From Tubulanus polymorphus (Eukaryota > Animalia > Nemertea), in NCBI RefSeq assembly GCF_964204645.1, contig NC_134034.1:6484914-6548913 (forward strand): a DNA stretch of 64,000 bases. The letters run 5' to 3'. Shown here piece after piece: positions 7,016 to 51,493 of the stretch. Under the pieces are notes generated by a model. The model worked only from the letters and a program-made list of their open reading frames with translations. It was not told where the DNA came from and made no database searches. How positions within the stretch are numbered: position 1 is the stretch's first letter; every line of letters begins with the position of its first letter. A program made the position numbers and the translations under genes.

Positions 7016-7060
7016 TATTCAACGTTTCGACTATATCCTAATAGTCATCTTCAGGAATAA
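7016..7060 (-). ncRNA. Minimal type I hammerhead ribozyme in Penelope pLTR (minus arm)
   Basis: Reverse complement of 10776-10821. Confidence 0.72.
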
Positions 7061-9406: not shown

Positions 9407-9490
9407 TTTCATTTTCGGACTTTTTATTATCATTGTGGGATTCTCTCCTCATCGCGTCAACACGGATATTGTGTTTTACCTATCGTGATC

Positions 9491-10775: not shown

Positions 10776-10821
10776 TTATTCCTGAAGATGACTATTAGGA
10801 TATAGTCGAAACGTTGAATAA
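10776..10821 (+). ncRNA. Minimal type I hammerhead ribozyme in Penelope pLTR (plus arm)
   Basis: TTATTC-C-CTGAAGA-T-GACTAT(tagg at)ATAGTC-GAAAC-GTT-GAATAA: core boxes plus stems I and II. Confidence 0.75.
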
Positions 10822-11190
10822 ACTACTATCTCAAAGTTTCATTTTCGGACTTTTTATTATCATTGTGGGATTCTCTCCTTATCTATTATTTTATTATCAG
10901 TGGTTCAGTTACAATTAGTTCTGTAATAATATTTCTAGCAATATTCAGTCCATTAACACCTTTAGCTATATCAATTGGCGTGCTAGGATTATCATCAAGT
11001 GTTTTAACTGGTATAAGTTCAAAATTAAATATAAAAAGTAATAAAGAAAAAATTAAAACTAATATAAAAGAAATTAATAAATTAAAAAATACACTAGATT
11101 ATATAATAAGTTTAAATGGTAATATTACAGTTGAAGAACAAGATAAATTATTAAAAGAATTAATAAATTATTAATTTTTTAATTATATAA

Positions 11191-13967: not shown

Positions 13968-15125
13968 ATGAGTGGGAGTTACATAAATCCTTCTAAGAAT
14001 CATAGAATATCTAATGCTATTAAAGCAGAAAGATCTCATCATACAATTACTCATAATCCTTCCAATATTAATCCCGATGAAACTTTATATGTTAGAATCC
14101 CTAGATTAACACAAAATACTTTTTATGTTCCAAATAGTATTTATTTATCAGCTGATATAAAAGTAACTGGCAATAATAATAATTATGTTGTTGATAATGT
14201 TGGAAGATATTTGATTAAAAAATTAACTATAAAGATTGGCCCAGAAACAGTTTTCTCATTAGATGATTATAATTTATTTACCCATTACAAAGATTTATGG
14301 TTAACTAAAGAAAATAGAAATAATATGATATTTCAAGGTATCCAATCAGAAAACCAAAATAAATTAAGATCAGAAGCTAATAATGCAGTAGTAACTAATG
14401 CTATAGATAATTTGATAAAAAAATATTTATGGAAGCAAATATAAAATTCCATTAGACTTTGAATTGATAAATAATAATGCACCTTTATATAAATATGCAA
14501 TTCAAGAAGATATTATATTCGAAATAACATTTGCTCCGGTTAATGAAATTGTATTATCTAGCGTTGTTAAAGATATGGGTTATAAATTATCGAATATATG
14601 TTTAGAATATAATACAATAACTGATGAAAATATTGCTAACACAATTCAAACTCAATACAATCAAGGATTTTCATTATTATATGATTATATTGATAAATTT
14701 AAAACTGTAACTATTAATGCTCATAATGAAATAATTAATGAGAATATTAACTTCCCAAGAAGATCTATTAAAGGCATATTAATATTTTTTACCATTGCAA
14801 CATATTCTAATGGCGCAATACAGGTTGATAAGTATTATAATCCTGAAATAACAAAAGTAGAAATAACTATCGAAGGAATAGCAAATAAAATATTTTGTCA
14901 AGGAATGAGAATGATAGATCAATGGCCAGAAATTAGAAAACATTTTATGAATGAAAAAGTAAAATCATCTGAAAATTGTAATATTAATCAAATTGATTAT
15001 TATACCGGTAATAAATACGCATTATGGTTAGATTTCAGAACAACAGAGGATAATTCATTACATGGTTCTGGGAAAAAACTACAGAACACTAAAGATGGAA
15101 AACAATTATTCATGACCAAGAAAAC
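13968..15125 (+). pseudogene. Major capsid protein (double jelly-roll), one frameshift, C-terminus deleted
   Basis: LYVRIPRL, LIKKLTIKIG, YKIPLDF, YKLSNICLEY, NINFPRRSIKGI, YALWLDFR; position between the structural block and integrase. Confidence 0.75.
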
Positions 15126-15951
15126 AACACATAAAAAAATTGTTAGAAAATATGAAACTCGTAAAACTTTCGTAAGTTATGTAGATCAACAGTGGCAAGG
15201 AGATTTAATTGCTATGAAAAATGTTAAGAAAGATAATGATGATTATTGGTGGATATTGAATATGATTGATATTTTTAGTCGTTAAGTATGGAGCTTCCAA
15301 CTTTATAGAATAGATGTTGATCAATTTGATGATGGAAAAGAATTTGATAATTCACTTGTTCATGAACTCTTAGAAAATCATAATATTAGATATTTTTCAA
15401 CAAAATCGGATAAAAAAGCAGCAGTTGTTGAACGATTTAATAGAACATTAAGAACAAGAATGTGGAAATATTTTACAGCAAATAATCCTTTTAAATGGAT
15501 TGATGTTTTACCAAAATTGATAGAAGGTTATAATAATTCTTATCATTCTTCTATTGGAATGAAACCTATTGATGCTAGAAAACCTGAAAATGCTGAAATT
15601 GTTTGGAATAATTTATATGGAGCATTTCTTGTAGATGATTTTGGTGAACCTAAATTTAAAGTTGGTCAAAATGTTAGAATTTCTAAGTATAAAAAGATAT
15701 TTGACAAAGGATACGATCGTAATTTTACTAGAGAAATATATAAAATAAAAAAGGTAATAACAACAAAACCATATGTCTATAAATTAGAAGATTTAAATGG
15801 TGAAGAAGTTGATGGGTACTTTTATGAAAAAGAATTAAGTTTAACTACTGAAAATCTAGAACAAGAATTTAAAATTGAAAAAGTATTAAAAACAAAAACT
15901 ATTAATAGAAAAAAAATATTCTTTAGTAAAATGGGTTGGATGGCCAGATAA
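15126..15951 (+). pseudogene. Retroviral-type (rve) integrase with C-terminal chromodomain, copy A
   Basis: QWQGDL, IDIFSR, QFDDGKEF, VERFNRTLR, YHSSIGMKP, FKIEKVL..KWVGW. Confidence 0.9.
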
Positions 15952-16559
15952 AATAAGGAATTATTTATATTTGAGCCTCATAATATGTTAATTTCTGGCG
16001 TAACAAATTGTGGAAAAACTTATTTTATATTAAATTTATTAGAAACTATTTATAAAAACTATTTTGATAATATAGTATTATTCTGTCCAACATATGAATT
16101 TAATCAAACTTATGATAGAAATATTACTAGAAATAATAAATTTATTATATTTAATCCTAAAACAGTTATTAAAGATATTTAGATAATTGTATAAAAATAG
16201 CAATTGATATTTATAAAGATTCAAATACATTATTCATTATAGATGATTGTGCAAATTTACATGATTCAAAAGTTAGAGAAAGTAAGTTATGTTATTTAGC
16301 TTTCTCTGGTAGACATTTTGGGATAACAACATGGGTTTTAAATCAAAAATATAATTAAATTGTTAAAGATTTTAGAGAAAACATTAAATTTTTAGTATTA
16401 TTCTACAATAAAGATAGAAAATCGATGAAAAATGCGCTTGAGGAAAATGATATCATTCCACATGATTTACAAAATGAATATATGGATAAATTGAAAAATA
16501 ACAAAAAATCAAAATTACTATTTCGATTACAACACCCATTTAAATATGAATTCATTTAA
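15952..16559 (+). pseudogene. Genome-packaging ATPase (A32/FtsK-like), copy A
   Basis: Walker A GVTNCGKT, Walker B FIIDD, GRHFGI..LNQ; frameshift and stop. Confidence 0.88.
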
Positions 16560-16597
16560 ACACAACTAGCTTGTTAATCTAAAATTTATTGTGAATT

Positions 16598-18630
16598 AGA
16601 ACATCTAAAAACGGAATTTGGTCATTTTTTCCCATTCAAAAGTGAATTTCAAAGATGGATATTGGGAGTTGATGAAGTCGATAAAAGAGGTAAGATCAAA
16701 ATTATCAGAAACTAAGCACAGAATGTCATCAACATATCGAATCCAAAAGTTAGGTTTAGAGCCAGCGTACTTAGGGAGAATTTCGGATTCAAAGTTCAAG
16801 GAAAAGATTAGCCAAAATCGGGGATAATGGGTTACCCATAGCGAAACCGAAAATTTGTTCATAGAATTTGTCTTGGAATTGGAAATAGAAATTGGTTGTA
16901 CAGAGTTCCAAAAGTTCAAGTAAACATTCTACAGGAATTGGGAGATCAAGATTGGAGTCCGGGAGTTTTCTTCTTAAGAAATTGAGAGTTGGTTCCAATG
17001 GTATATTAGTGAACAAGGAAACAGCGTCGAAAGATATAAATTTTTGTCCATTAGGTTTGAGATTTTTTAGTTTGTCTGAAAGATCCATATTGTGCCGAAT
17101 GTGAGAATCAGAAAAAGTACCCAAAGCCGGGGAGAGTACTTTAGCCAGATATTTGGAGAGCCGATATGATGGAGAATTAATATTAGAAATGATCGGTCTT
17201 AACGGTGAATTGGGTTTATGAATTTTTGGAAGACCATAAGCATAAGGAAGATTTGGAAGCCGAGAGTTAAATTTGGAGATGAAGTCCGAATGGTCAGGAA
17301 ATTTCTTAGAGATGTTTTTTAAACCTAAATTAAAAGCCGATTGTACCTTTTTCAAAGGGTTGTTTCTGGTGGATTTGTAGAAATTGGAATCAACGAGAAT
17401 AGCAAACATTTTAGAATTGTAATTGATAAAATCTTGAATAACAATTTTGCCGCCTTTATCAGCCTTGGAGATGCGGATGGTTTTGATGGATTTTAGTTCC
17501 TGGAGAGCAATCGAAAATCTCCGAGGAAAGAACTGATTAGATTGACCTTGAAGGGTATTCCAAATGGTGTCCAAATTCATGAATATAAAATTGTATTGAA
17601 AACTAGCCGGAGGAGATCTTTCCATACGTTCAACGAAATCCAAAATGTGTTGTTTTTTTATGTGGGAGAGAGAAATTTAATCCTAAACCGAGAACTTGAA
17701 TTTGTGGTTTGGTTAATTTAGCCGAAGATAGATTGACAACATTATCATTAGCGCAAAATTTGGTCCAAGGGCTGTTGTCTATTAATTTATTCAGAATGGA
17801 AGAGAAATGCGAATTTTTCTTTAGACGATGTACTGCGCAAAGATTCTTGATGCCTGAATGAAGAGAGTGCCAAAGGGAACCATCAGGGATATGGTGTCTG
17901 AGAAAACGTTGTGCTTGTCGCATTTTATAGAAATTGGAGTTGGTAGTTTTTTTTTGCTTCCAAAATGCAATGTCTTAGACGAGATGCTGCTTCATTGCAA
18001 AATGGTTGATCTGATTTGAATTTATTCAACCAATTCAGAGATTTAGGAATAACCTGTTCTTGGGGACATTTTTGAAGAAATATGACTTTTTCTTTGGATT
18101 TGTGAGCTTTATAAGCAGCAGATTCGTATTTTCGAAAAGCAAAGATCAAATGAGGAAAGTTTATGAATAAGCATTTCAAAGCCAAATTAAAATCCGTGGG
18201 TAACATAATAGAACGATGTTCACACTCAAACGTGGTGAACGGATAATAAGATAAAATCCCACTATTTACAGAGAATTTAAAAACCACAATTTATTTATTA
18301 AATCTAAAATATATAAAAGACACGACGTTTCGATCTCACCCTAGAGATCATCGTCAGGTGTGAGAAATAGACTAAAAACCAGGGTATATATACAGAGGAG
18401 GACAGGTTAATTGAGTAAATTGGTGAGTGAGTAAATAATTAGTGTTTGGCAAGGCATGAAGTAATATACTTAGAAAGAAGGGAATTATGCGGGGAAAAGC
18501 CATTATTTAAATTGGTACTAATATCTGAGTGACGAGTAATTAGGGCAGACTCAACTATGTGGCGTTTAGTGTAATTGCTGGAAGTATAAATAATTTCGGC
18601 TTTATCAAAATTAACCAAATTTACCAAAAC
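16598..18630 (-). mobile_element. Penelope-like element family 2: GIY-YIG tail, pLTR, then ORF (ATG at 18206) truncated after the RT
   Basis: IVESALI..LNNGFSP; MLPTDFN; KADKGG, YGLPKIHK, FDAVSLFT, GFAMGNPLSP, RYVDD; several frameshifts. Confidence 0.9.
18320..18361 (-). ncRNA. Minimal type I hammerhead ribozyme in Penelope family 2 pLTR
   Basis: Minus strand ACAC-CTGACGA-T-GATCTC(tagggt)GAGATC-GAAAC-GTC-GTGT, with a GUC cleavage triplet. Confidence 0.85.
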
Positions 18631-18799
18631 ACAAATTCAAGTTTGAAGACAGATTTAGAATAAAGACTGTACAAGTTTATAGAGTTTAGAAATGCAAAAT
18701 ACAATACGAACAGGTTCAGCGCACAAACTCTGAGCACACAGCGAGCGATAATGCGAGAGAGGACTGTAATCCAATCCTAGAGTTACTCATTCATCAAAT

Positions 18800-20112
<1,313 letters not shown>

Positions 20113-20311
20113 AAAAAATACCTTGTAAAGTTTGCGACAAAGTATATATAGGAGAAACAGGTCGGAATCTTAATCAACACATAAAAGAGCATACATTAGA
20201 TGTAAAAAACTTTAAACCTGAAAGCGGAGTTGCTAGTCATGTTTTTCAGACTTCACACAATTTTGATTTTGCTAATGCTGAATTAATTTACCCTTGCAGC
20301 GATAAAACTAG
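20113..20311 (+). mobile_element. Fragment of Penelope family 1 GIY-YIG region
   Basis: Near-identical to about 10140-10337. Confidence 0.9.
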
Positions 20312-20360
20312 AGTAATTAGAAGATGGCGTTTTCAGATCAGAGTACTAGAGTACTAGACA

Positions 20361-20399
20361 CCACTCATCACCACAAGTAATTTTTTTCCCTAATAAATG
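20361..20399 (+). promoter_or_regulatory. Putative promoter CCNCTCATCAC...TTTTTCCCTAATAAATG upstream of polB
   Basis: Same motif on the minus strand upstream of ZnF-VLTF3 (5265-5275, 25730-25740). Confidence 0.5.
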
Positions 20400-23300
20400 G
20401 GAGACAGTGAGTTCCAAACAGAAAAAAGTGATGTCAATAAAAATCAATATTATTGCCCATATTTTAAAAAATACATCGATAAATCTAATAAAACTAAACA
20501 TGAAAAATCTTCAAATCATATAAAAAATGTAATAGATTTTGAAACTCCAGAAAATTCCAATGAAAGAAAAGAACGATTAGAAAATATGAATGTGGATGAA
20601 ATAAAATGTGAAGTTTGTAATGAATTTATAGTAAAAAGGAATTATAAAAGACATCTCGAATCACAAAAACACCATCAAAATTTGAGTAATAATGTTTTAG
20701 GAAAAGATTATTTTGATAATAAACCTCAACAAGTAAAAGAATCAACTTCAAAAACAAAATCCATTTCAAATAAACCTTACATGGAAAATGTTAGAAATTA
20801 TATTGATTCACTAGAAATAAAAGATACAATTGAAATCTTAGAAACATTACATAGTAAAATTGGTCCTGCAGCTATTATATTTAGATTTTTTAAAGGTACA
20901 ACAATAGAAGATTATAGTAAATTTAATGAAATAATAGAAAAAATACTAGATTTGATAACAGATGTTGAATATCCAAAAATTAGTATCTCTGGGAAAGTAA
21001 GTTTTATAAAGTCAGAAGAAAAAATGGATTATAATATTCAAACACTCTCTGAAGAAATAATTTCAAAAACACAAATAAAAGAGAAGTTAGAAAAAATATT
21101 AAATGAATTTAAACGTCATATTGAAGAAAGATATTTTGAGGGTTCTGGTTTAACATTGAATGAAATTATATATTTAGATTTAAATGTTTATAATACAAAA
21201 AGAAATAAAACATCAAAAAGTAATAAAATGTTTAAAAATAATTCAAACTTTATAATAGAAAAAGATATGAAAGCATCAAGTTATATTAAATTACCATTTT
21301 TATCAAAAGCAATTATAAATGTTAAAAATGAAGACAACAAATGTTTTCTGTGGGCAATTATTAGTTGCTTACATCCATCACAGGAAAATGTTTGTAGAAT
21401 AACAGATTATCGGAAATATGAAACATTATATAAAATTGATCAATATCCAGTAACTATAAAAATGATTCCTAAAATAGAAAAAATTAATAATTTAAAAATA
21501 AATGTATTCGAATTAATGCAATTACCAAAGACAAAAGGTGAAAATATTAAAGATTATACATTGGAAGCTTTATATTTAACAGAATATTATGATGATGAAA
21601 ATGCTATAGATTTGTTATATTACAAAAAAGATGAAAATGAACATTATATGTGGTTAAAACAAATTGATTTATTCTTTAGAACAGAAAGTGATTTTAACAG
21701 CCATAAAATTTATCTATGTAGAAAATGTTTATCTAAATTTAGAACTGAGAATACATTATTAAAACATAAAGAATTATGTGATAATAAAGATTTTTGTAAA
21801 TTAATAATGCCAACAGAAAAAGATTATAAATTGAAATTTACTAATCATAAATTTAAAAATATTGTTCCATTTGTAATTTATGGGGATTTTGAATCGTTGA
21901 ATAAAGAATTAACTGATCAAGATAGAAAAGAAATATATAACAAAAAGCAATTATTAAAATCAATGGATAAAGGAAGTGAATTAAATGAAGATATAATTCA
22001 AGACCCACCAATTATAAATACAATTAAAAAAGTTCATCAAAGAGCTGCTGCTTATGGAATTTATATAAAATCAAATTATCCCGAATTATATGAAAGTCAA
22101 TATATTTCTTTTAGAGGTGAAAATGTAGTTAATGATTTTTGTGATAAAATGATTGAATTAGAAAGTGATTTTGCAAAATTATTAAACAAAAATAAAAGAA
22201 TAGTTATGACAAAAGAAGATGAAATTGATTTTAATTATGCAACTCATTGTTGTTATTGTGAAAAACGTTTTTATTCATTTGATAAAAGAGTTAGAGATCA
22301 TGATCATTTAAATTCAAAATATCGTGGAGCTGCTCATGAAGATTGTAATTTACAAGCTAAAAAAGTAAATTTCGTACCAATATTATTTCATAATTTATCA
22401 GGATATGATACCCATCTATTTATAAAACCATTATCGGGAAAATTGGGCGCAATTAATCAAGAAATAGAAGAATATAATGCTATGAATGAAGCAAATGTAA
22501 GAAAATATGATTTTAAACTATTAGCTAAAACATCTGAAAATTATATTTCATTTCAATTTGGTTGCATTAGATTTTTAGATTCTTATAGATTTCTAGCAAG
22601 TTCATTAGATAATTTATCAAAAAGTTTAGTTGATAATGATTTTGTTATAACTCGATATTATTATCCAAATGACCAAGATTTTAAATTATTGAGATATAAA
22701 GGCGCAATTCCTTACTCATTTATAAAACACACGATGATTTTAATGTAACAGAATTATTAAAAGATCAATTTTATGATAAATTAAAAGAGGAGTATGTGAA
22801 AGACGAAGTTTTTGATAGAACATTAAATATTTGGAACCATTTTAAGATGAAAAATCATGGTGAATTAGTTGATTTATATTTAAAATCAGATGTTATGATA
22901 TTAGCTGACATATTTGAAAAATTTAGAGAAGTTAATTTGAATCATTTTAATGTTGATCCTTGTTATTGCTACTCTAGTCCTGGTTTAACCTGGCAATGTG
23001 GTTTAAAATATACAAATGTAGAATTAGATTTATTAAAAGAACCAGATATGGTTTTATTATTTGAAAAATCAATTAGAGGTGGAATTAGTGGTGTTATGGG
23101 AGATAGATATTTTAAAGCAAATGATGAATATAAATTATTATATATTGACGCCAATAATTTATATGGTTGGGCAATGATGCAACCTCAACCATATAAAAAT
23201 TTTATATTAACAGAAGTTGAAAATGGCGATAAAACTAATTGGGAAAGCGCAATTATGAGTTTAGAAGATGAAGCACCAATCGGTTATTTCTTTGTAGTTG

Positions 23301-24397
23301 ATTTAGAATATCCTGAAAATATAAAGTTTAAAACAAGAAACTTACCTTATTGCCCAGAACATTTAACTGTAGATGATAGTTATTTAAGTGAATACCAGAA
23401 GAAAATAAAACCGAAAGATCATGTTTTTACAGAAAAATTAATACTTACTCAAAATAATAAATACAATTATATTGTTCATTATAGAATGTTAAAATTTTAT
23501 CTAAAACAAGGAATGAAATTAAAGAAAGTACATAGATATATTGAATTTAATCAATCGAAGTGGTTAGAAAAATATATAGATTTCAATACTCAACAGAGAA
23601 CAATATCAAAAAATGATTTTGAGAAGGATTTTTTTAAGTTAATGAACAATGCATTTTATGGAAAAACATGCGAAAATATTAGAAATAGAAATGATATTGA
23701 ATTAGTGAATAATTATGAAAGATTAAGGCATTTACAATCAAGTCCTAGACATCTAGGAAATAAAAGATTTGAAGATTAATTAACAGCAGTAAAATTAAAA
23801 AGAACATCTATGAAATTTAATAAACCAATATCTATAGGTTCAACTGTTTTAGAAGTTTCAAAATTATTAATGTATGATTTTTATTATAATGTTTTGCAAC
23901 CACTTTTTGGGGAAAAGCATATTGAAATATTATATTTTGATACTGATGCGTACATATTAAAGATAAAAACTGATAACATAACAAAAGACTTAAAAACATT
24001 GAAACATTATTTTGATTTTAGCAATTACCCCAAAGATCATGAACTATTTAGCAATGATAATAAAAAGATTCCTGGTAAGTTTAAAGATGAATTAGGAGGT
24101 GATGAAATGATTGAATTTGTTGGGATAAGAAGTAAAATGTATAGTTACAGAACAAAAGATCATGAAGCTAAAAAGTTAAAAGGAATAACAAAACATGTGG
24201 TTGATAAACATATAGAATTTCAAGATTATATAAAGTGTTTATATAAATCAATTGTAATGAAACACAAAATGAATTGTTTAAGATCAGAAGATCATGAGAT
24301 GTACATTAATGAAGTTGAAAAAACTAGTTTAAATCCATTTGATGATAAAAGGCATATTTTAGATGATGGTATAAAAACATTACCTTATGGTCATTAA
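20397..24397 (+). pseudogene. polB: Protein-primed PolB type 1, full length and intein-free; one frameshift (~22725) and one stop (23779)
   Basis: N-terminal zinc fingers, DNKCFLW..EHY (vOTU-like), ExoI YGDFES, EndoVII-like RDHDH..AHEDCN, ExoII FHNLSGYD, DANNLYG, KLMNNAFYGK, YFDTD. Confidence 0.95.
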
Positions 24398-25694
24398 AAC
24401 ATAAAATCAATATCATCATACTCGAAATCACTATTAGCTTCTTCATTTTCATTTAATTGTTCAGGTTCTTCTTCCATTCCATTTTTCTCATTTAAATAAA
24501 GTTCTATCTTGTTCCACATTTCATCTCGCTCTCTTTGTTTCTTTTTGTTTGTTAATTCATCAAATGGAATTATAATATCTAGGTTTAAATAATTTACAAT
24601 CTTATTTAAAAAGAATTCATAATTTATTGAATCTGTTATTCTATTTTCCAAATGATACATTAATATTTGTTTAAATATTTTTTTTATATTTTCCATATCT
24701 TCTTCTGTTAATTTAGGTTTTTCATAATAATCGTTAAATAATAAATATAAATACATTTTCTTTTCTTTTGTGTTAAATGTTGGTGGAATAATTGTTTTTA
24801 TAATATCTTTTTTAGTTATTTCACCATTTTTATTTTCTATTATTTTCATTTTTTCAAGCCATTGCATATATTCTGGTGTATGATCTTCTATAGAAAATAT
24901 TTTAAAAATTTCATCAAGATAATTTAATTTTGGATTTATAAGAAAATTTCTAGTTTTTTCTTCATCCCATAAATTCTTTTGCCATCCACAATCAACACAA
25001 AATAACACAGTACCTTCTTGTCTTAAGGTCGCATAACTACATTGTGGACATTTTCGTTTATAATTTATTGGTAATAGATCTTCATTAAGCTCTTGGTATT
25101 TTCTTACGTTTTCTTTATGTTTTATTGTTCTATTATGTAGATTTGAATTACTTGTTGTAATAATCAATTTACAATATTTACAATAATATGTTTTTCTTGT
25201 TAATTCATTATATTGTTTTTCTAACTTTTCAACTGTTTCTTCATTATCTGGTAACGTTTTCTCATATTTTATTTTTTCTAATAAATTATTTTTTCTTTCA
25301 TTGAATTCAGTTTCAAATTTATTAGAAATTTTATCTATGTGTGCTTTACTAAATTGATGATTCTCCCAATCTTCTATATTTTCGGGGTTATATTTTATTT
25401 GACAAGGCTCACAGAAATCATTCTTTACATTATTCTTGTTATAAAATAAAAAAGGTTTTTTCCAAATAACTTCAGGTTCAACTTCAGCAGAATTATTATC
25501 AACATTAGCTGTTGCGCCATTAATTCTACACTTCTCTGAATGTTTTTAACATAATTTCTTGAGAATAATTTATTACATTTTGGGCAGTTTATTTTAGGGG
25601 TTTTATAATTTTCATTATGTTTTTTCATATGTCGAGCCTTATTACTTTTTCTTAGAAGTTCACCACAAATTTCACATGCTATCTTCTCTTCCAT
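24394..25694 (-). pseudogene. Multi-zinc-finger / VLTF3 (poxvirus A2L)-like protein, about 430 aa, single frameshift near 25548
   Basis: Frame read open by hand from about 25480 to 24394; four Cys/His fingers, then CPQC..CVDC, NFLINPKLNYL, IFKQIL..INYEFFLNKI, RDEMW. Confidence 0.78.
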
Positions 25695-25762
25695 TTATTA
25701 AGGAAAAATTTTATTAAAATTAATTTTTAGTGATGAGCGGTAATTTTTTTATGTTATAAATA

Positions 25763-26515
25763 ATGGTAGAATTAAAAGAATACAGAATATTTGTAGATTC
25801 TAGAAAACTTACAAATTATAAATCACATAATTTACTAGTACAATTAGATAGAGAATTTAAGAATTGTGTAGATTTAAAATTAGTTAATATAAGTTTATGT
25901 AACTCATTTTATAATATAACAGCTAAAAGTCTTGAACATTTATTTTTTTCAATCAAGAGTAAGGATAAATGGAATTATCTATTTTTAAAACCAGGATTAT
26001 ATAATTTAGATACATTAGCGCAGGAAATTAATAGAAAAGCTCGGATCAAATTAGGTAGTGATGCTGAATTTAACATTAGATTTTTGAAAAGTGATAATTC
26101 TAATAAAATGAAGATAAGGTTAGCCCATAATGAAAAATATAAATTTTCAGTTAAAAAACCTATAGCTAAACTATTAGGAATTACACCAGATAAATATTAT
26201 TCAAATGTTGATACTACACCAAATATAATACCTTTTACACACTTTTATATTTATTGCAATTTAATCGATCCTACAAAAACATTCGAAGCAACTAAAGATA
26301 TAACTTGTAATTCTGGTTTACTAAACATTTTACCAATGAAGAATGTTAAACAATTTGGAACGCAAATAAATTATAATTTAGCTGAATGTGATTTCAAACC
26401 TTGTATTCCTCAATTTAATAATTTTAAATTAGAAATAAGAAATCATAATGGATACTTAATTGATTTGAATAACTTTCCTGTAATTTATGAATTAGTTATA
26501 AGATGTAAAGAGTAA
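25763..26515 (+). CDS. Minor capsid protein (penton), intact 250 aa
   Basis: IFVDSR, LKLVNISLCNSFYNI, FYIYCNLI, LEIRNHNGYLIDLNNFPVIYEL, typical of Polinton single jelly-roll pentons. Confidence 0.78.
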   Translation: MVELKEYRIFVDSRKLTNYKSHNLLVQLDREFKNCVDLKLVNISLCNSFYNITAKSLEHLFFSIKSKDKWNYLFLKPGLYNLDTLAQEINRKARIKLGSDAEFNIRFLKSDNSNKMKIRLAHNEKYKFSVKKPIAKLLGITPDKYYSNVDTTPNIIPFTHFYIYCNLIDPTKTFEATKDITCNSGLLNILPMKNVKQFGTQINYNLAECDFKPCIPQFNNFKLEIRNHNGYLIDLNNFPVIYELVIRCKE

Positions 26516-26531
26516 TTTTTCACCTATATAA

Positions 26532-26888
26532 ATGAATATAACTGTTGGACCGAGTATATGTTTTGGGTTTGATTTTAAACGTGAGAAAGAAATGAAATTT
26601 AACATTAATGATGTAATAACACATATAAAAAATATTGCATTTTCTAATGAAACAACATTTGAGTATGAAACAACAATAGATAAAGAAACTTTAAATATAG
26701 AAAAGATTACTAATTTAATTAGAGAATCTTTAAGATTTTATGAATTAGATGAAGATTTTATCATCGATGATATCAAAAAAATAATAATTGAAATATATAC
26801 AAATGAAACTAGTAATGAAATAAATGTTGAATTAATCATAAATAAGTTAACTAAATATTTTGAAGATAGTAATTTTTTTGATAAATAA
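26532..26888 (+). CDS. 118-aa acidic Polinton protein, unknown function
   Basis: Intact; homologues at about 5860-6078 and 37856-38211; TAAATG start. Confidence 0.72.
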   Translation: MNITVGPSICFGFDFKREKEMKFNINDVITHIKNIAFSNETTFEYETTIDKETLNIEKITNLIRESLRFYELDEDFIIDDIKKIIIEIYTNETSNEINVELIINKLTKYFEDSNFFDK

Positions 26889-27110
26889 ATGAGTGATAAT
26901 AAGTGGATAATAACTGGATTATATAATGGCGCATTACTATCAGTTGGAACGGTTGGTTATTCAATGGTATTAAAAAAAGTATTCAAAATGGGAAGTGTTA
27001 ATGTTGATAGATTTGATATAAATGATATTTTGAAATTAACGTTAGCAGTTACTTTATCTAATTTAACTATTGATTATTTGGAAAAACAAAAATATATTCC
27101 TCCCATATAA
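26889..27110 (+). CDS. 73-aa hydrophobic Polinton protein
   Basis: Intact; three copies in the window. Confidence 0.72.
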   Translation: MSDNKWIITGLYNGALLSVGTVGYSMVLKKVFKMGSVNVDRFDINDILKLTLAVTLSNLTIDYLEKQKYIPPI

Positions 27111-27138
27111 GAAGTGTGTAATTTTTTTTGCTAAATAA

Positions 27139-27561
27139 ATGGCTTCTGCAATTATTACTATTATAGGATCGGCAATTGTTAACGCTTTAGCATTTACTGG
27201 TGGTGGTTATTTATTTAAACATATTGATAAAAATAGTTCATTAGGAGAACAAAGAAGACATAACTTAGCGTTAGAGAAATACAATAAAGCTGCAGAAGAA
27301 TATAGAGAAAAGAGACAAAACTATATGGATTACATCAATAAAGAATTATATGATCAGAAGATTTCACATAGAGATTTTCAATCAGTTGATGATGCAATGA
27401 GTTTATATAACGCGGTAACAAATAAAGAAAAATTACATCTATACAAACCCAAATTATCAGATTATTATACCCCAAGTAAAGAACAACAGAAATATGAAAT
27501 AATTTGGATTTTAGGCGGAACTGTTATTGTTATATTTGTTGCTTATAAATTTACTAATTAG
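27139..27561 (+). CDS. 140-aa membrane-type Polinton protein
   Basis: Intact; three copies. Confidence 0.8.
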   Translation: MASAIITIIGSAIVNALAFTGGGYLFKHIDKNSSLGEQRRHNLALEKYNKAAEEYREKRQNYMDYINKELYDQKISHRDFQSVDDAMSLYNAVTNKEKLHLYKPKLSDYYTPSKEQQKYEIIWILGGTVIVIFVAYKFTN

Positions 27562-27580
27562 TAATTTTTATTCTAAATAA

Positions 27581-28015
27581 ATGGAAGATAAAGTTGATAG
27601 TATTGATATTATTCCTCATGATATAAATAAAACTAAATTAAAAACATATTTAGAAAAACAAATATTAGAATTTGAAAGTGACTTAAAGATAAAAAAGAAA
27701 AAATATTTAAAAAGTAAAATTATATATTATTTGATTATAAGTGGTTCGGTTACAATTAGTTCTGTAATAACATTTCTAGCAATATTTAGTCCATTAACAC
27801 CTTTAGCTATATCAATTGGTGTGTTAGGATTAAGTTCAAGTGTTTTAACTGGTAAAAGTTCAAAATTAAATATAAAAAGTAATAAAGAAAAAATCAAAAC
27901 TAATATAAAAGAAATTAATAAATTAAAGAACACACTAGATTATATAATAAGTTTAAATGGTCATATAACAGTTGAAGAACAAGATAAATTATTAAAAGAA
28001 TTAATAAATTATTAA
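27581..28015 (+). CDS. 144-aa two-TM Polinton protein
   Basis: Intact; hydrophobic hairpin flanked by basic coiled coils. Confidence 0.78.
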   Translation: MEDKVDSIDIIPHDINKTKLKTYLEKQILEFESDLKIKKKKYLKSKIIYYLIISGSVTISSVITFLAIFSPLTPLAISIGVLGLSSSVLTGKSSKLNIKSNKEKIKTNIKEINKLKNTLDYIISLNGHITVEEQDKLLKELINY

Positions 28016-28031
28016 TTTTTTAATTATATAA

Positions 28032-29421
28032 ATGGTAGATAGTTTTCCAAAAGCTTTCCGATATAATAAATCAATTAAATATAATATTCCAGCAATAGAT
28101 TTTAATAAAGATATAACATATAGAAATGAAGTTTTAGATTCATTAACTAATTTAGAAATTTATGTTACTGAAACTAATAATTTTAATGCAAAGATGGAAA
28201 ATATATTTCATGTATATTTAATTAATTTTAAAAAATTTAAAGATGAAAAACAATGGTTATTAAAATCTAATATGAAGTATTGGCAGAATCAATTAAATTT
28301 TGCTGTTTATTGTGCAACAACAGGATGTGGAATTAGTTGGAATGATCATTTAAATAATTCTAAATATAAACTAATTCAAAGTTTATTTAGATTTCATACA
28401 TACTTTCAAATCAGAATAATATTAAATGAATTAGAGTGCGCTTTACCAGGATCTAGATATTTTAAAGAATTAGATAATAATATTAATTTATCTAAGTTTT
28501 ATAAAATTTGTAATGAATTTAATGTAGATATAAATAATTCTGATTTTAGAACAAAAATTGGAACAATAAGATCACTTCCTTGCCCTAAAAAGATTGCAGA
28601 ATATTGTGCACTTCCCATACCATCTAATAGTTTTTATAATATCTATAATAAAAAATTAGGTTATGGTAAAATAGAAACAAAGGATTTAGAAACATTAAAT
28701 TTCAATAAATTACCGAAATTTTATGATAATTTAAAACAAGAAAACAATAATGGTTGGGTTTATTTTATTTTAGAAAATAGTGAAGGTTTTACAAAATCAG
28801 GTATAGAAAGAATAAATCAATCTATTAGAACTTATTTGATTTGTATTCTAGGATCACAAGTTGAAACAAGATCACCGATAATTGGAAATTTGAATACATC
28901 ATTTGATACACAAAAACAGTTTAAAGTTTTATTTGAAGATTCAATTCATAATGATAAAAATAGATCGATTCCAGAAAACATTATAAGATATCAAAATTAT
29001 TTAGATAAATCTCATGTAAGACTTAATTATTGTATAGGCCCTAATCTATTAATTATTTCTAATGATTTAGTATTAAAGATGGGAAACATAATTGGTTATA
29101 ATAATCTAATTAAAACTGCAACAATAAATAATTCATTTGGATTAAATGATATAAATAAAAAGATTATTACTGCTCCAAAATTAATGGAAGGTGAAAAAAA
29201 TAAAAAACACTTTCAATCAACAGAAACTAAAACTAAGAATATTAAATTAAATAATGATTCTAAAAGATTACAATAAAAGATTACAATACATCAGAAAATA
29301 TAAAAACTGATATTATTCAACATGATATAATTAAACTAAATGATGATAATAAATCCCATGAAAATACTAAATTAGCTATAACTTGTATAGGAATTGTAAT
29401 CGGAGGAATATTATATTTTAA
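28032..29421 (+). pseudogene. CATTGCG-motif protein with C-terminal TM, copy B (late frameshift)
   Basis: 414-aa ORF, then the tail LAITCIGIVIGGILYF in another frame. Confidence 0.8.
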
Positions 29422-29444
29422 ATTTTAATTTTTTTATTATATAA

Positions 29445-30878
29445 ATGGATGTAGAAGGTGTAGAAGATATTGGAATGGATCCTTTTGATGAACCTGGTAT
29501 AACTGATGAACAACCACCTGATTTTGATGAAACAAGTTTTAATGATGGTAATGAAACAGCATATAATTCTAATTTAACTACACCCCAATTTATTGACAAA
29601 GCACGTTCAAAGATAAGTATTGAAAATGAAGTACCAGAAATAACAGAAAAAGAATACAATTATAATGAAATTGTTCATGAATTTAAACCAATATTAGAAA
29701 AATCAGGATTCAATATAACAAATAAAGGTATGGATCATTTAGCAAAAGATTTGAAATATTTAAATGGTGATTATTATTGGAAATTGAAAGGCGACTATTA
29801 TTTTAAGATTTCAAATCTTAAAAGTGGTGATAAAATAATAACAAAATCAACTTTTAATTTATTTAAACCAGATAGAATTAAGAAAATCATTGATGATGTT
29901 ATAACCGATGTTACACAAGAAGAAAGAGATTATAATATAAAAGAATTTAAACAAAGAAATGCTAAATTTTTTGATATAATTAATGCAAATTTAAGACAAA
30001 AAAAAATTCCTAAAGAAGTTATTAATTCCAAAACTAGTAAACCTAATTCAAGAGAAGTTCAAACTGAAAAACTTTTACCAAATGGATTACTTGATGCAAC
30101 AGATCAAGAATTAGAAAATTTAAATATATTTTCTGATGAAGCAATTAGAGAAATTATTAGTATAAGAAATGAAGCTGATAAAATTGCACATAATAAAAGT
30201 ATAAGAGATTTTAAAATTAGAACTTCAGAAAAAGAATTAACTGATAAAAATAAAGAAATAGAACAATTAAAATTAGATAGAGATAATAAAGTTATTGAAG
30301 AAATTGAATTTAAAAAAAGAAATGCATATTTAGAAAAAGAAAAAGATGATTTAGAATATAACATAGAATTACAAAAAGAAGAAATTAAATCATTATTAAA
30401 ATCATATGATTATAATATTGATAGATTAAAAGATGTTTTTAAAAGATTTCTAATAAAACCAGATTCTAGAATATCATTGAAAGATAGAATAAAGTTATTA
30501 TTTAAATTAGAAGGAATAACAATTCTTTCAATTCTAACAGCTGTAACTATGTTATTTACAACAATTGGTTTAGCTATATCAAATGCTTTGAAATCTACTC
30601 CTACTCCCAATAAACCGGATAAACCCCCGAATGATAATAATTCTATACAAGATAAAGTCAAAGATGGTTTAAAGAAATTAGCAAAATATTTATGGGAACT
30701 ATCTAAAAAATCTGCTGCAGCATTACCAGGAATTATTGCATCAATTGTTGGTTTTATATTGAAATCTGCAGGAAACATTCTTAACTTTGCTGCTGAACAT
30801 ATTATTTTATTTTTAATTACAGTTGTAAGTGCTATTATTTTTGGGTTAGTAAACATGATATCAAAAAATATCAAGTAA
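29445..30878 (+). CDS. 477-aa acidic / coiled-coil / TM-amphipathic Polinton protein, intact
   Basis: Long open frame; hydrophobic segments EGITILSILTAVTML.. and ALPGIIASIVGFIL.. Confidence 0.82.
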   Translation: MDVEGVEDIGMDPFDEPGITDEQPPDFDETSFNDGNETAYNSNLTTPQFIDKARSKISIENEVPEITEKEYNYNEIVHEFKPILEKSGFNITNKGMDHLAKDLKYLNGDYYWKLKGDYYFKISNLKSGDKIITKSTFNLFKPDRIKKIIDDVITDVTQEERDYNIKEFKQRNAKFFDIINANLRQKKIPKEVINSKTSKPNSREVQTEKLLPNGLLDATDQELENLNIFSDEAIREIISIRNEADKIAHNKSIRDFKIRTSEKELTDKNKEIEQLKLDRDNKVIEEIEFKKRNAYLEKEKDDLEYNIELQKEEIKSLLKSYDYNIDRLKDVFKRFLIKPDSRISLKDRIKLLFKLEGITILSILTAVTMLFTTIGLAISNALKSTPTPNKPDKPPNDNNSIQDKVKDGLKKLAKYLWELSKKSAAALPGIIASIVGFILKSAGNILNFAAEHIILFLITVVSAIIFGLVNMISKNIK

Positions 30879-30919
30879 ACCATGATAAAAAATAAATGAT
30901 TAATTTTTTTGTTTAATAA

Positions 30920-31547
30920 ATGAGTGGGAGTTATATAAGTCCTTCTAAGATTTCTAGAATATCTAATGCTATTAAAGCAGAAAGATCACATCATATAATT
31001 ACTCATAACCCTTCAAATATTAATCCCGATGAAACTTTATATGTTAGAATTCCTAGATTAACACAAAATACTTTTTACGTTCCAAACAGTATTTATTTAT
31101 CAGCCGACATAAAAGTAACTGGCCATGATAACAATTATGTTGTTGATAATGTTGGGAGATATTTGATTAAAAAATTAATTATAAAGATTGGTCCAGAAAC
31201 AGTTTTCTCATTAGATGATTATAATTTATTTATGCATTATAAAGATTTATGGTTAACTGAAGAAAATAGAAATAATATGATATTCCAAGGTATTCAATCG
31301 GTAAACCAAAATAAATTAAGATCTGAAGCCAATAATGCAGTAGTAGCTAATGATGTAGATAATTTGATTAAAAAGATTTATGGAAGCAAATATAAAATTC
31401 CATTAGATTTTGAATTGATAAATAATAATGCACCGTTATATAAATACGCAATTCAAGAAGATATTATATTTGAGATAACATTTGCTCCTGTAAATGAAAT
31501 TGTATTATCTAGCGTTGTTAAAGATATGGGTTATAAATTATCGAATA
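30920..31547 (+). pseudogene. Major capsid protein, N-terminal half
   Basis: Homologous to 13968 onward; broken after YKLSNI. Confidence 0.75.
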
Positions 31548-34510
31548 TAAATCAATATATAATATAAATTCTCATTCACAACATATTATTTCAAAACAAC
31601 ATATAGATGAAAAATTAGATAAATGTTATAATGAAGTAAGAACTAAAATAGAAGAGAAATATTTTGAAGGATCAGGTTTAATATTTGATGAAATAATACT
31701 TATGACTTTACATGTATACAATACAAAATATAATAAGTTAACTAAATCAAAACCAATAGATGAAAATAATTTATCATATTATAAAGATGATAATATAAAT
31801 GGATCAAGTTATATCAAATTACCATTTAAAACTAATGCTGTTATAAATGTACAAAATAAAGATGATAAATGTTTTCTATGGACAATTATAAGTTGCTTAC
31901 ATCCAGTTGAAGATTATAATCAACATATTTATAGATTAACACATTATAAACAATTTGAAAATAATCATAATATAGATAATTATCCAGTTAGAATTAAAAA
32001 TATCCCGAAAATAGAAAGAGATAATTATATAAAGATAAATGTGTTTGATTTAGTCAAATTACCAAAAACAAAAGGTAACAATATAAAACATTATACATTA
32101 GAACCTCTATACTTATCAAAAGATTATGATTCAAATGATGTTATAGATATATTATATTACGAGAAACATTATATGTGGATTAAAAGAATTGATTTATTTT
32201 TCAAATCAGAAAATGATTATACTCGTAAAATGTTTCAGTAATGAAAGTGCAGTATTGAATCATAAACAATTATGTGAAAATCATGATTATTGTAAAAAAG
32301 TTTTACCAAATGAAAAAGATAAGATTTTAGAATTCAAAAAATATGATTACAAGAATAAAGTTCCATTTGTAATATATGGAGATTTCGAGTCACTCAATAA
32401 AGAATGAAAATGATGTAATTGATTATTCAGATCCTCTAATAACAAATACAATTAAAAATATTCATCAAAGTGCTGCAGCTTTCGGGTTATATATTAAATC
32501 TGATTATCCAGAACTAATCAAAAGTGAATATTATCATTATAGAAATGAAAATGTTATTAATCATTTTTGTGCCTTATTAATTGAATATGAAATAAATTTA
32601 ATAAATTGTTGAATAAAAATAAAGAAATAATTATGACAGAAGAAGATAAAGAAGAATTTGAGTTTGCTGATAAATGTTATTATTGTGAAAAGATATTTAA
32701 TCTTAAAGATATAAAAGTTAGAGACCATGATCATTTGAATGGAAAGTATAGAGATGCAGCGCATGAGAATTGTAACTTACAAGCAGAGAAAATTAATTTT
32801 GTTCCAGTTACATTTCATAATCTATCAGGGTATGATGCTCATTTATTCATCAAACAATTATGTCATAAAATAGAAGAAATCAATAATGAAATAGAAAGAT
32901 TAAATTCAAATAGATCAAAAGATAGAATACCAACTTATAAATTTAAAATGTTAGCTAAATCATCTGAGAATTATATATTTTTCCAATTTGGATGTTTAAG
33001 ATTTATAGATTCATATAGATTTTTAAGCAGTTCATTAGATGATTTATCAAAATCATTAGTTGATGATGAATAAGAAATATTTAAGCAACACTATCCAAAT
33101 AATGACGATTTTCAATTAATGAGATATAAAGGAGCAATTCCATATTCATTTTATAAATCACATAATGATTTCAAAATAACTGAATTATTAAAAGAACAAT
33201 TCTATGTTGAAATAAAAAATGAATATGTTAAAGATGAAGTATAAATAGAACATTGAATATTTGAAATCATTTTAGAATGAAAAATCATGGACAATTAGTA
33301 GATTTATATTTAAAATCAGATGTATTATTATTATCTGATATATTCGAAAGGTTAAGAGATGTAAATCTAAAATAATAAAATCGATCCTTGCCACTGTTAT
33401 TCATCACCAGGTTTAACTTGGGATTGTGGTTTGAAATTTACAGATATAAAAATGGATTTGTTAACAAATATAGATCAATTATTATTATTTGAGAAATCTA
33501 TAAAAAGAGGAGTTTCGGGTGTATTAGGCGATAGATATTTCAATGTAAATGATAACCCTGGATATAAGTTATTATAAATGGATGCAAATAATCTATATGG
33601 TTGGGCAATGATGGAACCCCAACCTTATGGAGTATTTGAAATAACTGAAAATTTACAGTATGAAAATAATCATAAATTTGATTGGAAGAAAAGAATTCTA
33701 GATATTGCAGATGATTTAGATACTGGTTACTTTTTTGTTGTAGACTTGGAATATCCTGAAGATAAAAAATTTAAATCCAGAAATCTAGCATACTGTCCCG
33801 AACATAAAACTGTTACACATGAAGAATTATCAAATTATCAAAAAAGAATTAAACCCGAAAATCATATTCATACAGAAAAGTTAATGGTGATTCAGGAAGA
33901 TAAATATAATTATGTAGTGCATTATCGGATGTTGAAGTTTTATTTGAATCAAGGAATGATCCTAAAAAAAGTACACAGATATATTTCATTCAGTCAATCT
34001 AAATGGTTAGAAAAATATATAGATTTTAACACCAAACAGAGAACTAAAGCTAAAACTGATTTTGAGAAAGATTTCTTCAAGTTAATGAATAATGCATTCT
34101 ATGGTAAGACTTGTGAAAATATTAGAAATAGAAATGATATTGAGTTAGTTAGTAATGGTAAAAGGATAAGGCATTTACAAACATATCCTAAGTTCATAGG
34201 TAACAGAATATTTGATGAAAATTTAGCTGCAGTTAAAATGAGGAGAACTTCTATGAAATTTAATAAACCAATTTATGTTAGTGCCTCAGTTTTAGAAATA
34301 TCAAAACTATTGATGTATGAATTCTACTATAACGTATTACAACCTCATTTTGGAGAAAAGCATATAGAAATCTTATATTTTGATAATGACAGTTACATAT
34401 TAAAGATTAAAACTAATAACATAACAGATGATTTGAAAACATTAAAACATCATTTCGACTTCAGTAATTATCCTAAAGATCATGAATTGTTTAACAATGA
34501 TAATAAAAAG
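31548..34510 (+). pseudogene. polB: Protein-primed PolB type 2 (divergent), truncated at both ends
   Basis: DDKCFLW, YGDFES, RDHDH, DANNLYG, KLMNNAFYGK, YFDNDS; much closer to 42585..45890 than to type 1. Confidence 0.9.
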
Positions 34511-34511
34511 G

Positions 34512-35764
34512 GGCTGTTCGAATATCACGGATACCGGATACCGGACACCTAAATACCGGATACCGGATACTCGAGATTGCGGAGTATATAGCGCATCGGG
34601 TCTAAGGAGTCGTTTCCGTGCTGTTGTAAGTAGTACTGCCGCGACATACAATTTATTTGTCAAATTATTACAGAGGCTAACCAACTTATTTGTCAGCCTG
34701 ATTACAGCCTGCTTTCACGTTTTTAGTGTCATCATCGATCTCAATATTATACATATTTCTTTCTGAATACTGTTGTTCTTTGGTTAGGTGAAGTTAAACG
34801 TTATATTCATTTTTTATTATCTTACTTCACTGGTGATGGATATGTATTGGTGGCCCTTTTTGGTTTTCTGTAAAATCCTTTCGTTAATAGGGCTGAGTAC
34901 TGCTAGGCCCTATATCTCAAGTTAGAAAGCCATAAGCGAGTCTGGCATTTGTAACGTTTCTTCTAATAAAATTTGTTTTAAAGATCTCTACATTTTGTAT
35001 TTGTTGATTTAGGATGAACACCAATGAAAAACAAGTATTTACAAACAAAGAATTAAAATTCGTTTTCTTATTTTATGGAGTAGAATATTCGGTCTATTCT
35101 ATTTATTGGACGATATGTCTACATTTCATTCTCAATCACAATGTCCCTAAAAATGAAATTGAGTCCATGGCGATCGTCGAAAATCAACACCCCTGGACAC
35201 CAATTGTTTTGGTATAACCTTCAAAAATCAGTTCGTCGAATACCGGTACCTACCATTTCTCTAAGTGACTATTTACCCTGATGTTAAATTTGATTCTAAA
35301 GATCATGAAAATATAGATCGTCAATAACGCTTTACTTAATTAAAATGGCCTTCTTCGTGAAACTGAATGATAAAGATATTTTGTATTGTACAGAAGCTCT
35401 GCCCAAAACGGTAACGGTCTATTCGGTAATCCGTTCAAATTGGCAGAATTATAAAAAATATTTTCTGTCCACTGTTTGTTACCGGGTCTGTCGTATGTAA
35501 TCGTGTTATTACTCGGAAGCAATAAATCTGTATTGAATTGTCTATACCGGTAACATTTGTATGCTACTTTACTTGAAAAGCATATACCGATGTATTATGA
35601 AAATAATCTAGGCCTTTTATTCTTCTACTTGATCTCACACGAACTGCCGTTTACCGCTGACCGTTAGACCCGATACGCTATAAACTCCGCAATCTCGAGT
35701 ATCCGGTATCCGGTATTTAGGTGTCCGGTGTCCGGTATCCGGTATCCGTGATATTCGAACAGCC
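34512..35764. mobile_element. Non-autonomous DNA transposon (MITE-like) with about 95-100 bp TIRs
   Basis: GGCTGTTCGAATATCACGGATACCGG... mirrored at 35664-35764; internal 7-mer ATACCGG repeats; no coding capacity recognised. Confidence 0.88.
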
Positions 35765-36271
35765 AACATTTATGGGGGACCTCTTCTTCACTCTAGCTAC
35801 TATGGTCCGGCCATACGCATTTTCAAGCTACTAACCTATTAATTGTGGTCTGATGCAAGTTGAAAATGTTGAAGGGAGCCGAAGACAACGACCTTGTAGG
35901 CGTCTCTATAACCCGAAAGAAATCGGTAAAGACTAAAGCACGGTTTAGGACCCGGCAGCAGACACCGGGCCCGGAAAAATTTTTCAAAACGTGTATCGTC
36001 GGTTCCTAGCACGATTTCAGCGTTTTTCGGGAATTCCCTGAAATTTCAGCATTTTTCTAGAATTCCCTGAAATTTCAGCGTTTTATTTTCAGCGTTTCAG
36101 CTTTTTCAGCGAAGTTCAGGAACCGGTCATTTCGATCACCACGTGATCGAAATGGTAGGTAGCAAAAAACGATTTAGAATTGTGGGAGATAATATAAATT
36201 GGAAAGTTGGCGTACATGATACGAGGATTGATTCGCATGATAAAATGTACCACGCGTTCTGATCAGCAATT

Positions 36272-36553
36272 ATGGAACAGACACTTGATTTTCGACTCAG
36301 TACGGAGCCTCCGCCTTCGTACGAGTTAATTCACAGTAGCGAGTTCATTCCGTCATCTATGGATTATAATGCAACTGTACAAGATTACATTATCCTAATG
36401 TCGAGAGTTATGTTCGAACACATTCCCTTTTTCACTCGCTCCAAGGAATACATTTCAAAGCACATTAGTCCGCCAGTTTTTCCAGACCTGTCAAAGAAAG
36501 CGAAAGTAATTCCGATCCCAGTAAAATTTCTCAATGAGCAGTATTATCAAGAT
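36272..36553 (+). pseudogene. Academ-type (DUF6589-like) transposase, upstream part
   Basis: FIPS..DY..LMSRV..HIPFF..KHI..SKK..VIPIPVKFLNEQYY. Confidence 0.65.
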
Positions 36554-37067
36554 AAATTCTCACACGCTCGAATTTATTTTTATTTTTTCCCACTCGACCC
36601 CTCAACCTTTGATATAGAACAACTAATTCCTATTTACTCTTAAAATATTCATCTAATAACTTCTAAAATAAATTTTAATAAAAAATATGTTATTGAAATG
36701 GAGAGTAAACAAGTACACAGTGAATTCTTAAATAGAATAAAAGATACTTCAAACGTCAAATCTGTAGATTATAAATTTAAGAAGTTAACAGAATTAACAA
36801 TTCCTAAGAAATATCTAATTACAAATATTGATACAGTTACTAATAGATATGGTAGTAAATTCTCCAAATTAGTAAAGTTATCCACTTAGAATATGAAGGA
36901 TTAAAAGGAAATAAATATAAATTCAGAACATATTTACCAGATAGATTTTATAGATTATCAAGTGAAGATTTAGAAAAATTATGTTCAGGTGATTTCTATT
37001 TCATATTTAAGGGTAAGAATGAAAAAGGGCACCATGAAATATATTTCGAATAAAAAAAATGTAAAAT
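36554..37067 (+). repeat. Left TIR of Polinton C (outer about 65 bp lost)
   Basis: Matches 51866-52103 directly and 51054-51325 as reverse complement. Confidence 0.78.
36698..37053 (+). pseudogene. About 113-aa gene X inside the TIR (possible OB-fold nucleic-acid-binding protein)
   Basis: FKKLTEL..KKYLIT..NRYG..TYLPDRF; 14-bp insertion frameshift; second copy in the right TIR. Confidence 0.55.
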
Positions 37068-42580: not shown

Positions 42581-42584
42581 AGAT

Positions 42585-51325: not shown

Positions 51326-51493
51326 ATCTGGAACCAGTTGCATAGTTCTAAGTCAAGGTTATTCTCAAAGTTAACTCATTGAATCATAATTTAACTGATA
51401 CTCACAACTGTGGAACTGGGATCCTGAAATTTTTAGTATAGCAGCTAAACCTGGATTTGAGAATAATAATGGGAGATGTATATAATAACTTAC

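Follow-up and report, generated by a model that had tools for sequence, protein, structure and literature searches.

A candidate virophage-like Polinton family with a pox-type start signal and a VLTF3/A2L-like gene in Tubulanus polymorphus

We analysed a stretch of 64,000 nucleotides from Tubulanus polymorphus (contig NC_134034.1), referred to below as the window, within which an original prediction had placed a virophage-like Polinton at positions 20312–31547 and had proposed that it depends on a pox-like helper virus. The window contains four decayed copies of one Polinton family, at 20–25% GC and interrupted by other transposons, and 20312–31547 is a decayed, truncated copy (copy B) of this high-copy family. 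The copies and their main features are the following.

1–16.5 kb: copy A, including an intein, an integrase and the 3′ part of the capsid gene
About 15200–15951: RVE integrase of copy A
20.3–31.5 kb: copy B, with DNA polymerase B (PolB) in three pieces, the VLTF3 gene in two frames, seven conserved open reading frames (ORFs) and a cut capsid gene
20379–20399, + strand: predicted PolB promoter (T-run, spacer, TAAATG)
20397–24397, + strand: PolB of copy B, three pieces, 33–58% identical along its length to the intact P0051
24394–25545, − strand: body of the VLTF3/A2L-like gene, one open frame of 383 codons with U1-type zinc fingers, a zinc ribbon and a VLTF3 domain (24397–25059)
25425–25694, − strand: ORF with C2H2 zinc fingers, probably the 5′ portion of the VLTF3 gene in another frame (both parts are in one chain in the intact P0047 and P0048)
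Before 25694, − strand: the same predicted promoter layout
25695–25762: divergent intergenic region of 68 nt, start signal at both ends
25763–26515, + strand: 250-aa ORF, by size and position a candidate minor capsid protein; 43% identical to L001
26532–28015, + strand: four small conserved ORFs (118, 73, 140 and 144 aa)
28032–29276, + strand: conserved 414-aa ORF, 69% identical to L001 and 38% to L006
29445–30878, + strand: 477-aa ORF whose C-terminal part is conserved and hydrophobic
30920–31549, + strand: major capsid protein, cut near codon 210 of about 415, 77% identical to the intact P0002
Before 26532, 26889, 27139, 27581, 28032, 29445 and 30920, + strand: the same predicted promoter layout
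31.5–34.5 kb: copy C, PolB only
31543–34510, + strand: PolB pieces of copy C, a second subfamily joined to the cut capsid gene, 53–84% amino acid identity to copy B
37–51 kb: copy D, including a broken integrase and an ATPase
49396–50230, + strand: RVE integrase of copy D, broken, PF00665 at cut-off
50231–50842, + strand: A32-type packaging ATPase of copy D with a TAAATG start (PF04665, E 2e-11)

The hallmarks of Maverick/Polinton elements are present in the family: a protein-primed PolB (pPolB), an RVE integrase, a double jelly-roll capsid protein and an A32 ATPase. The PolB pieces of the window have no Pfam match themselves, and their intact relative P0051 is a pPolB carrying PF03175 (62 bits). 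PF00665 is recognized in copy D, and in the relative L001 the integrase is accompanied by a chromodomain; integrase and ATPase genes are confined to copies A and D, with none in copy B, which is truncated where its capsid gene ends and continues into the PolB of copy C. The structure model of the capsid relative P0002 (predicted local distance difference test, pLDDT, 86) is a double jelly roll that matched double jelly-roll capsids with a Foldseek E of 3e-16. Among its PDB structure matches, all at 8–16% identity, the Sputnik capsid stood at rank 42, below capsids of nucleocytoplasmic large DNA viruses (NCLDVs). That VLTF3 and capsid relatives may lie on shared contigs is suggested by equal contig sizes (P0058 and P0033, 16883; P0049 and P0008, 12994) and on a cut zinc-finger gene in L001.

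In line with the original prediction, a scan of 33 window ORFs found no RNA polymerase gene and none of a capping family, nor did a short-motif scan, in a window that contains no whole element. The scanned window and locus ORFs, which likewise include no whole element, yielded no adenain-type cysteine protease. NCBIfam and PHROGs searches named no function for element ORFs; the four small ORFs of copy B had no convincing Pfam or PHROG family, and the 250-aa ORF had only a weak match to DUF5901 (E 0.011). Protein scans of IMG/VR returned three distant ATPases and no family member.

The claim that TAAATG stands at almost every start codon is borne out in copy B, where 9 of 10 gene starts carry it, whereas among the other ATGs it is seen at 26 of 428 (Fisher p 4e-10). 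These ten starts were picked by hand from the ORF list, ATGs inside the broken PolB and VLTF3 genes being excluded; the single start without TAAATG, at 25763, is TAAATAATG. A run of at least five Ts at −24 to −8 precedes all ten starts, compared with 2 of 26 non-start TAAATG hexamers. At the TAAATG starts the T-run lies 4–7 nt upstream, which is the layout described for vaccinia late promoters, namely a T-containing core, 5–7 bp, and TAAAT(G/A) over the start site (PMC5294985); many salmon gill poxvirus genes are also marked by TAAATG (PMC4542343). The bare hexamer is mildly enriched across the window (142 versus 112.7 ± 10.1), and the composite AATTTTT-N4-7-WATAAATG occurs 17 times against 0.04 expected, each time at a Polinton gene start. 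PolB (copy B), the integrase and ATPase genes (relative L002) and also the VLTF3 gene are preceded by the same signal, which leaves no distinct early class from which expression could be bootstrapped.

The pox early terminator TTTTTNT showed no clear pattern. A second upstream motif, TTTAATAAAA, lies at about −24 to −15 before the VLTF3 gene and a few others (window 25718, 5253 and 36674; L001 541 and 11030; L002 2437; L005 2263), and could be an intermediate-type promoter class. Vaccinia A2L is a gene of the intermediate-type class.

Because the window copies are related to each other, an independent test of the signal lies in relatives. We used 16 of 18 metagenome loci, having dropped two near-duplicates, and set their starts by an objective ORF rule. 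At 72–77% capsid identity TAAATG stands at 27 of 30 starts (48 of 930 other ATGs), and at 52–55% identity, with GC up to 44%, at 17 of 22 (28 of 898). When these two groups are pooled, loci of 40–44% GC included, 44 of 52 starts are TAAATG; the region from −18 to −12 of these 44 is almost without G or C, and 41 have a T at −12. Four of six divergent gene pairs in relatives have 19, 28, 28 and 30 nt between their ATGs with TAAATG at both ends, although the loci L016 and L017 are perhaps not independent. Distant relatives at 34–43% capsid identity have TAAATG at 0 of 12 starts. At that distance L011, L012 and L018 show TATATATG/TATAATATG-like starts in its place, and L012 also carries Bro-N and VRR-NUC genes; start signals may differ between clades according to the type of helper.

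As controls, other transposon ORFs of the window have TAAATG at 1 of 11 starts, and three virophage-like loci at 0 of 5, 0 of 14 and 3 of 16 (3 of 35 together). When IMG/VR was scanned for the motif, 68 loci came up, of which none is homologous to the element; TAAATG stands at 73 of 480 of their starts, a count into which one match per locus is built.

These counts bear on whether the signal is translational or vestigial, that is, a start-codon context, stop–start coupling on polycistronic RNA, or the relic of a virophage-like past in what is now a family of nuclear transposons. The DNA is 77–80% AT, every window copy is decayed, and one copy B junction is a direct stop–start, all of which would suit such an origin. 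However, the gaps between copy B genes are −4, 68, 16, 0, 28, 19, 16, 168 and 41 nt, so that 8 of 9 junctions are not stop–start, and closely spaced divergent genes carry the signal too, which argues that it does not reflect stop–start coupling. Moreover, the signal is kept in intact genes at 40–44% GC and across 52% capsid identity, the other transposons of the window do without it, and a T-run at a fixed distance would be left unexplained. We therefore regard this explanation as quite improbable.

The VLTF3/A2L-like gene of the original prediction is confirmed. PF04947 matched the C-terminal ORF at 27.3 bits (cut-off 25), Atlas returned Pox_VLTF3 clusters at 0.96, and the element protein combines a zinc ribbon with the Pox_VLTF3 domain. 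Its structure model (pLDDT 79) gave seven Foldseek matches at E ≤0.001, of which three are poxvirus A2: cowpox at rank 1 (E 3.8e-6, template modelling score 0.60) and entomopox at ranks 3 and 5; the others are unnamed or from giant viruses. A phmmer search of 1.84 billion proteins returned four matches, three of them element-type. The sole non-element match, P0050, is 63% identical to the A2L of L105, an entomopox-type record of 232,392 bp and 17% GC that carries MSV199 genes and an NAD ligase. The window VLTF3 domain scored 42 and 23 bits against P0050 and the L105 A2L, versus at most 10 against seven VLTF3s of giant-virus bins. In a tree that left out P0049, which is without the zinc ribbon, the element rows and P0050/L105 were joined against those seven with support 100/99. 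Used as a query in four giant-virus bins, the window VLTF3 found no match, and a word-based search for VLTF3 found nothing.

The third trait put forward by the original prediction was an NCLDV-type PolB intein in copy A.

2548–3600, + strand: intein with a LAGLIDADG endonuclease in PolB motif C (YFD|S...N|T) of copy A, a 1053-nt insertion broken by frameshifts

An intein it is, with the features of a Pol-c intein (insertion in motif C, S...N|T junctions, splicing domain and LAGLIDADG); its site is empty in copies B and C, and copy D stops short of the site. An intact relative lies in P0051 (54–85% identity by piece; Intein_splicing 30 bits, below the cut-off of 35.8), the other three of four intein matches being the Pol delta-like P0052, the archaeal-type P0053 and a 1951-aa polymerase of giant-virus size; a related PolB intein is also present in the giant-virus bin G001. 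The archaeal-type assignment refers to the structure 1s5j, Sulfolobus PolB1. Four further inteins are 39, 37, 32 and 31% identical to that of P0051, and the nearest after P0051 are P0052 and P0053, with giant-virus inteins further away, so the NCLDV-specific part of the claim does not stand. An intein tree did not resolve. With relatives spread over Pol delta-like, archaeal-type and giant-virus polymerases, none of them pox-like, the intein shows that such polymerases were once in the same cell as the element, and names no helper; it thus drops out as an independent trait for a pox-like or NCLDV helper. Homing endonuclease insertions in Polinton PolB have earlier been read as intein invasions (PMC11161782). 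The inteins of P0051–P0054 and L097 form one Pol-c family that spans protein-primed PolB, Pol delta-like, archaeal-type and giant-virus polymerases at 31–41% identity, and four of six family members are without the usual penultimate His.

We consider it probable, at roughly 60%, that these elements are a Polinton lineage with a virophage-like way of life, whose genes are transcribed by the RNA polymerase of a large cytoplasmic DNA virus infecting the same cell, with a pox-type virus as the likeliest helper; that the helper is specifically pox-like falls somewhat short of an even chance. A helper polymerase is favoured by one compact signal at the start codons and by spacing too tight for host core promoters, in an element in which no RNA polymerase gene was found, as in mavirus and the Polinton-like virus (PLV) Gezel-14T. 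Mavirus promoters match the late motif of its helper CroV (10.1101/068312), and Gezel-14T has an early motif of its helper's type at its genes (10.1101/2022.07.28.501842). Of the pox-like transcription originally predicted, a helper polymerase is thus the best fit to the T-run, spacer and TAAATG layout, its clade-wide conservation, the divergent regions of 19–30 nt and the pox-type VLTF3; on these points the evidence goes beyond that first put forward. TAAATG as a mark specific to poxviruses has to be given up, since two giant-virus bins have it at roughly one start in three.

If helper transcription is correct, RNA would start within TAAAT and have almost no templated leader, perhaps a slipped poly(A) leader such as slippage produces at the poxvirus TAAAT start (PMC6211774). 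A single promoter class would serve replication, integration and capsid genes, which would then be switched on jointly late in helper infection, as for mavirus. As an adaptor of TFIIB type, the element's VLTF3 would steer the late machinery of the helper to element promoters, and the integrase would preserve copies in the host genome from one helper infection to the next. The window copies are all broken and so cannot themselves be inducible or active, which disposes of the inducible, protective provirophage proposed for them; that integrated copies protect the host at all seems improbable. More tentatively, and on balance somewhat unlikely in its entirety, a widespread Polinton clade may be the animal counterpart of mavirus, a genome-resident virophage of pox-like viruses, having taken A2L from a poxvirus lineage and placed every gene on a pox late promoter, with tens to hundreds of copies in an animal genome, the intact ones being induced by pox infection and perhaps holding it in check.

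The same observations could come from an autonomous nuclear virus, whose own VLTF3, carried inside the virion or expressed from a leaky promoter, brings the host's RNA polymerase II (Pol II) to short TAAAT promoters captured once, together with the gene, from a pox-like virus. Mriyaviruses, which are thought to be nuclear, have VLTF3 and no RNA polymerase (PMC11253617), and herpesvirus late factors bring Pol II to short TA-rich promoters (PMC12197705). The VLTF3 model itself has a weak likeness to TFIIB/cyclin folds (Z 5.3, root mean square deviation 3.4, 97 aligned; below trust level). Within a nuclear genome the family has built up at least tens of copies, and a helper-dependent element would not need a late factor of its own. 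However, VLTF3 and PolB lie behind the same signal as the capsid genes, and divergent regions of 19–30 nt are too short for two Pol II core promoters with leaders. Poxviruses use several late factors, of which the element has just one. Autonomy of this kind is the leading alternative and, in our judgement, unlikely.

Several points weigh against transcription by a helper. No helper virus, element transcript or protective effect was observed, and there is no explanation yet for how a polymerase of the cytoplasm would get to copies in the nucleus; the mriyaviruses, as described above, show VLTF3 without RNA polymerase in viruses taken to be nuclear, and the intein points to no poxvirus. Our control set is without canonical Mavericks, which is the largest gap. 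TAAATG stands at 6 of 18 starts in bin G001 (L098, L077), which was entered as Pimascovirales PM_01 (PMC8575486), and at 5 of 14 in bin G002 (L099, L083), counted in fresh stretches with a background of 3–5%; five other bins have 0–4 of 8–18. The pox-like late initiator therefore occurs outside poxviruses, and the 5 of 12 starts in the entomopox-type locus are close to the G001/G002 share. Pfam support for VLTF3 is marginal, PF04947 not being listed for the 383-residue frame, and the alignment behind the VLTF3 fold model included P0050. The VLTF3 tree is unrooted, has 12 rows from which chordopox, asfar-, ego- and mriyaviruses are absent, and is flagged for compositional bias in the pox row. 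Given such sampling and bias, it is fair to place the element VLTF3 nearest to pox-type A2L, and we infer capture from a poxvirus.

The element class and the virophage strategy are both known; new is that an integrating Polinton, probably from an animal host, combines a pox-type promoter conserved across its clade with a late factor of pox type. Polintoviricetes, adintoviruses and coral polintoviruses, as Mavericks/Polintons, likewise have pPolB, RVE integrase, A32 ATPase, a double jelly-roll capsid and many integrated copies, and a published subgroup has VLTF3 (PMC11131425). This family differs from them in its uniform pox-type start signal, and its partial data contained no cysteine protease. 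VLTF3 has been reported in the coral polintoviruses (PMC11131425) and in other PLVs (10.64898/2026.06.19.733378; PMC8502044), and the word 'promoter' occurs 0 times in the main texts of the coral polintovirus (PMC11131425) and adintovirus papers. Our literature search, which was thin on subscription papers and supplements, turned up no description of this signal for any Polinton.

PLVs associated with entomopoxviruses had, as the original prediction noted, already been reported (Barth et al., PMC11296320). They too are small Polinton-like elements proposed to parasitize an animal poxvirus, but as described they are set apart by a size of ~12 kb, a protease, no RVE integrase and a helper tie by co-purification, and the main text contains no 'promoter', 'VLTF', 'TAAAT' or 'intein' (PMC11296320). 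Mavirus with CroV, the Sputnik/mimivirus virophages and Gezel-14T would be alike in having one helper promoter class genome-wide, an integrase and no RNA polymerase, if our reading holds; they differ in protist hosts, mimivirid helpers and other motifs, and dependence and protection have been shown there experimentally and are proposed here. With poxvirus intermediate/late promoters and A2L the element shares a T-rich core, short spacer and TAAATG over the start codon, and a compact zinc ribbon plus VLTF3 domain. It differs in having the signal at about 85–90% of genes, against 5 of 12 in the pox-type locus, and in a protein that has extra N-terminal zinc fingers and 17–27% identity. Mriyaviruses share VLTF3 without RNA polymerase in a small genome but have VLTF2 and a HUH endonuclease, no DNA polymerase, and are taken as nuclear and autonomous (PMC11253617).

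How animal Polintons are expressed, and whether they need a helper, is an open question that a conserved start signal makes cheap to test, and the signal is a sequence marker by which Polinton clades might be sorted by way of life. Were the helper reading true, an unsampled pox-like virus would be predicted in the host and also wherever the relatives live, and inducible virophage defence would extend from protists to animals.

Copy number was estimated from 1.93 Gb of genomic reads with the same species label. Read depth over copy D is 255–1053, compared with ~6 in the lowest flanking bins, so the family has at least about 40–180 genomic copies if those bins are single copy. Among reads placed on 20130–37000, 3245 of 51413 are 99% alike, and 583 run past 31549 in other copies, beyond the capsid cut of copy B; because most differences and breaks of the window copies are absent from most reads, less decayed copies may exist. 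Amplification of the element was considered from the very high depth of run X1 and rejected, as depth there follows the number of overlapping contigs. Three small assemblies with the same species label (one presumed RNA, two apparently the same data) contain 4, 4 and 6 short element pieces.

No element terminus (terminal inverted repeat with 6-bp target duplication) could be defined for copy B, the copies being nested and cut; at its left end 20301–20400 has no second match in the window or loci. Its left border is a retroelement fragment.

20104–20312: Penelope-like retroelement fragment, 97% match to 7488–7696 and 10129–10337

Pao/BEL, Penelope-like and piggyBac elements are also present in the window and point to an animal host; BEL/Pao elements are not known outside animals. 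In copies B (31549) and D (42488–42585) the cut capsid gene continues into second-subfamily PolB, and in copy A (14575–15285) the 3′ part of the capsid gene reads in frame into the 5′ part of the integrase. The close relative L001 has a deoxynucleoside kinase gene at 10340–10981 (PF01712, E 1.7e-31), an unusual Polinton cargo. Penelope-like retroelements with long inverted repeats lie inside and after copy A (6918–10883 and 16500–20312), and a 1.25-kb DNA element with terminal inverted repeats of ~95 nt is inserted at the end of copy C (34511–35765). At 36546–37067 and 51054–52103 direct and inverted duplications surround a palindromic core at which hundreds of genomic reads end loosely, and which is possibly an element terminus.

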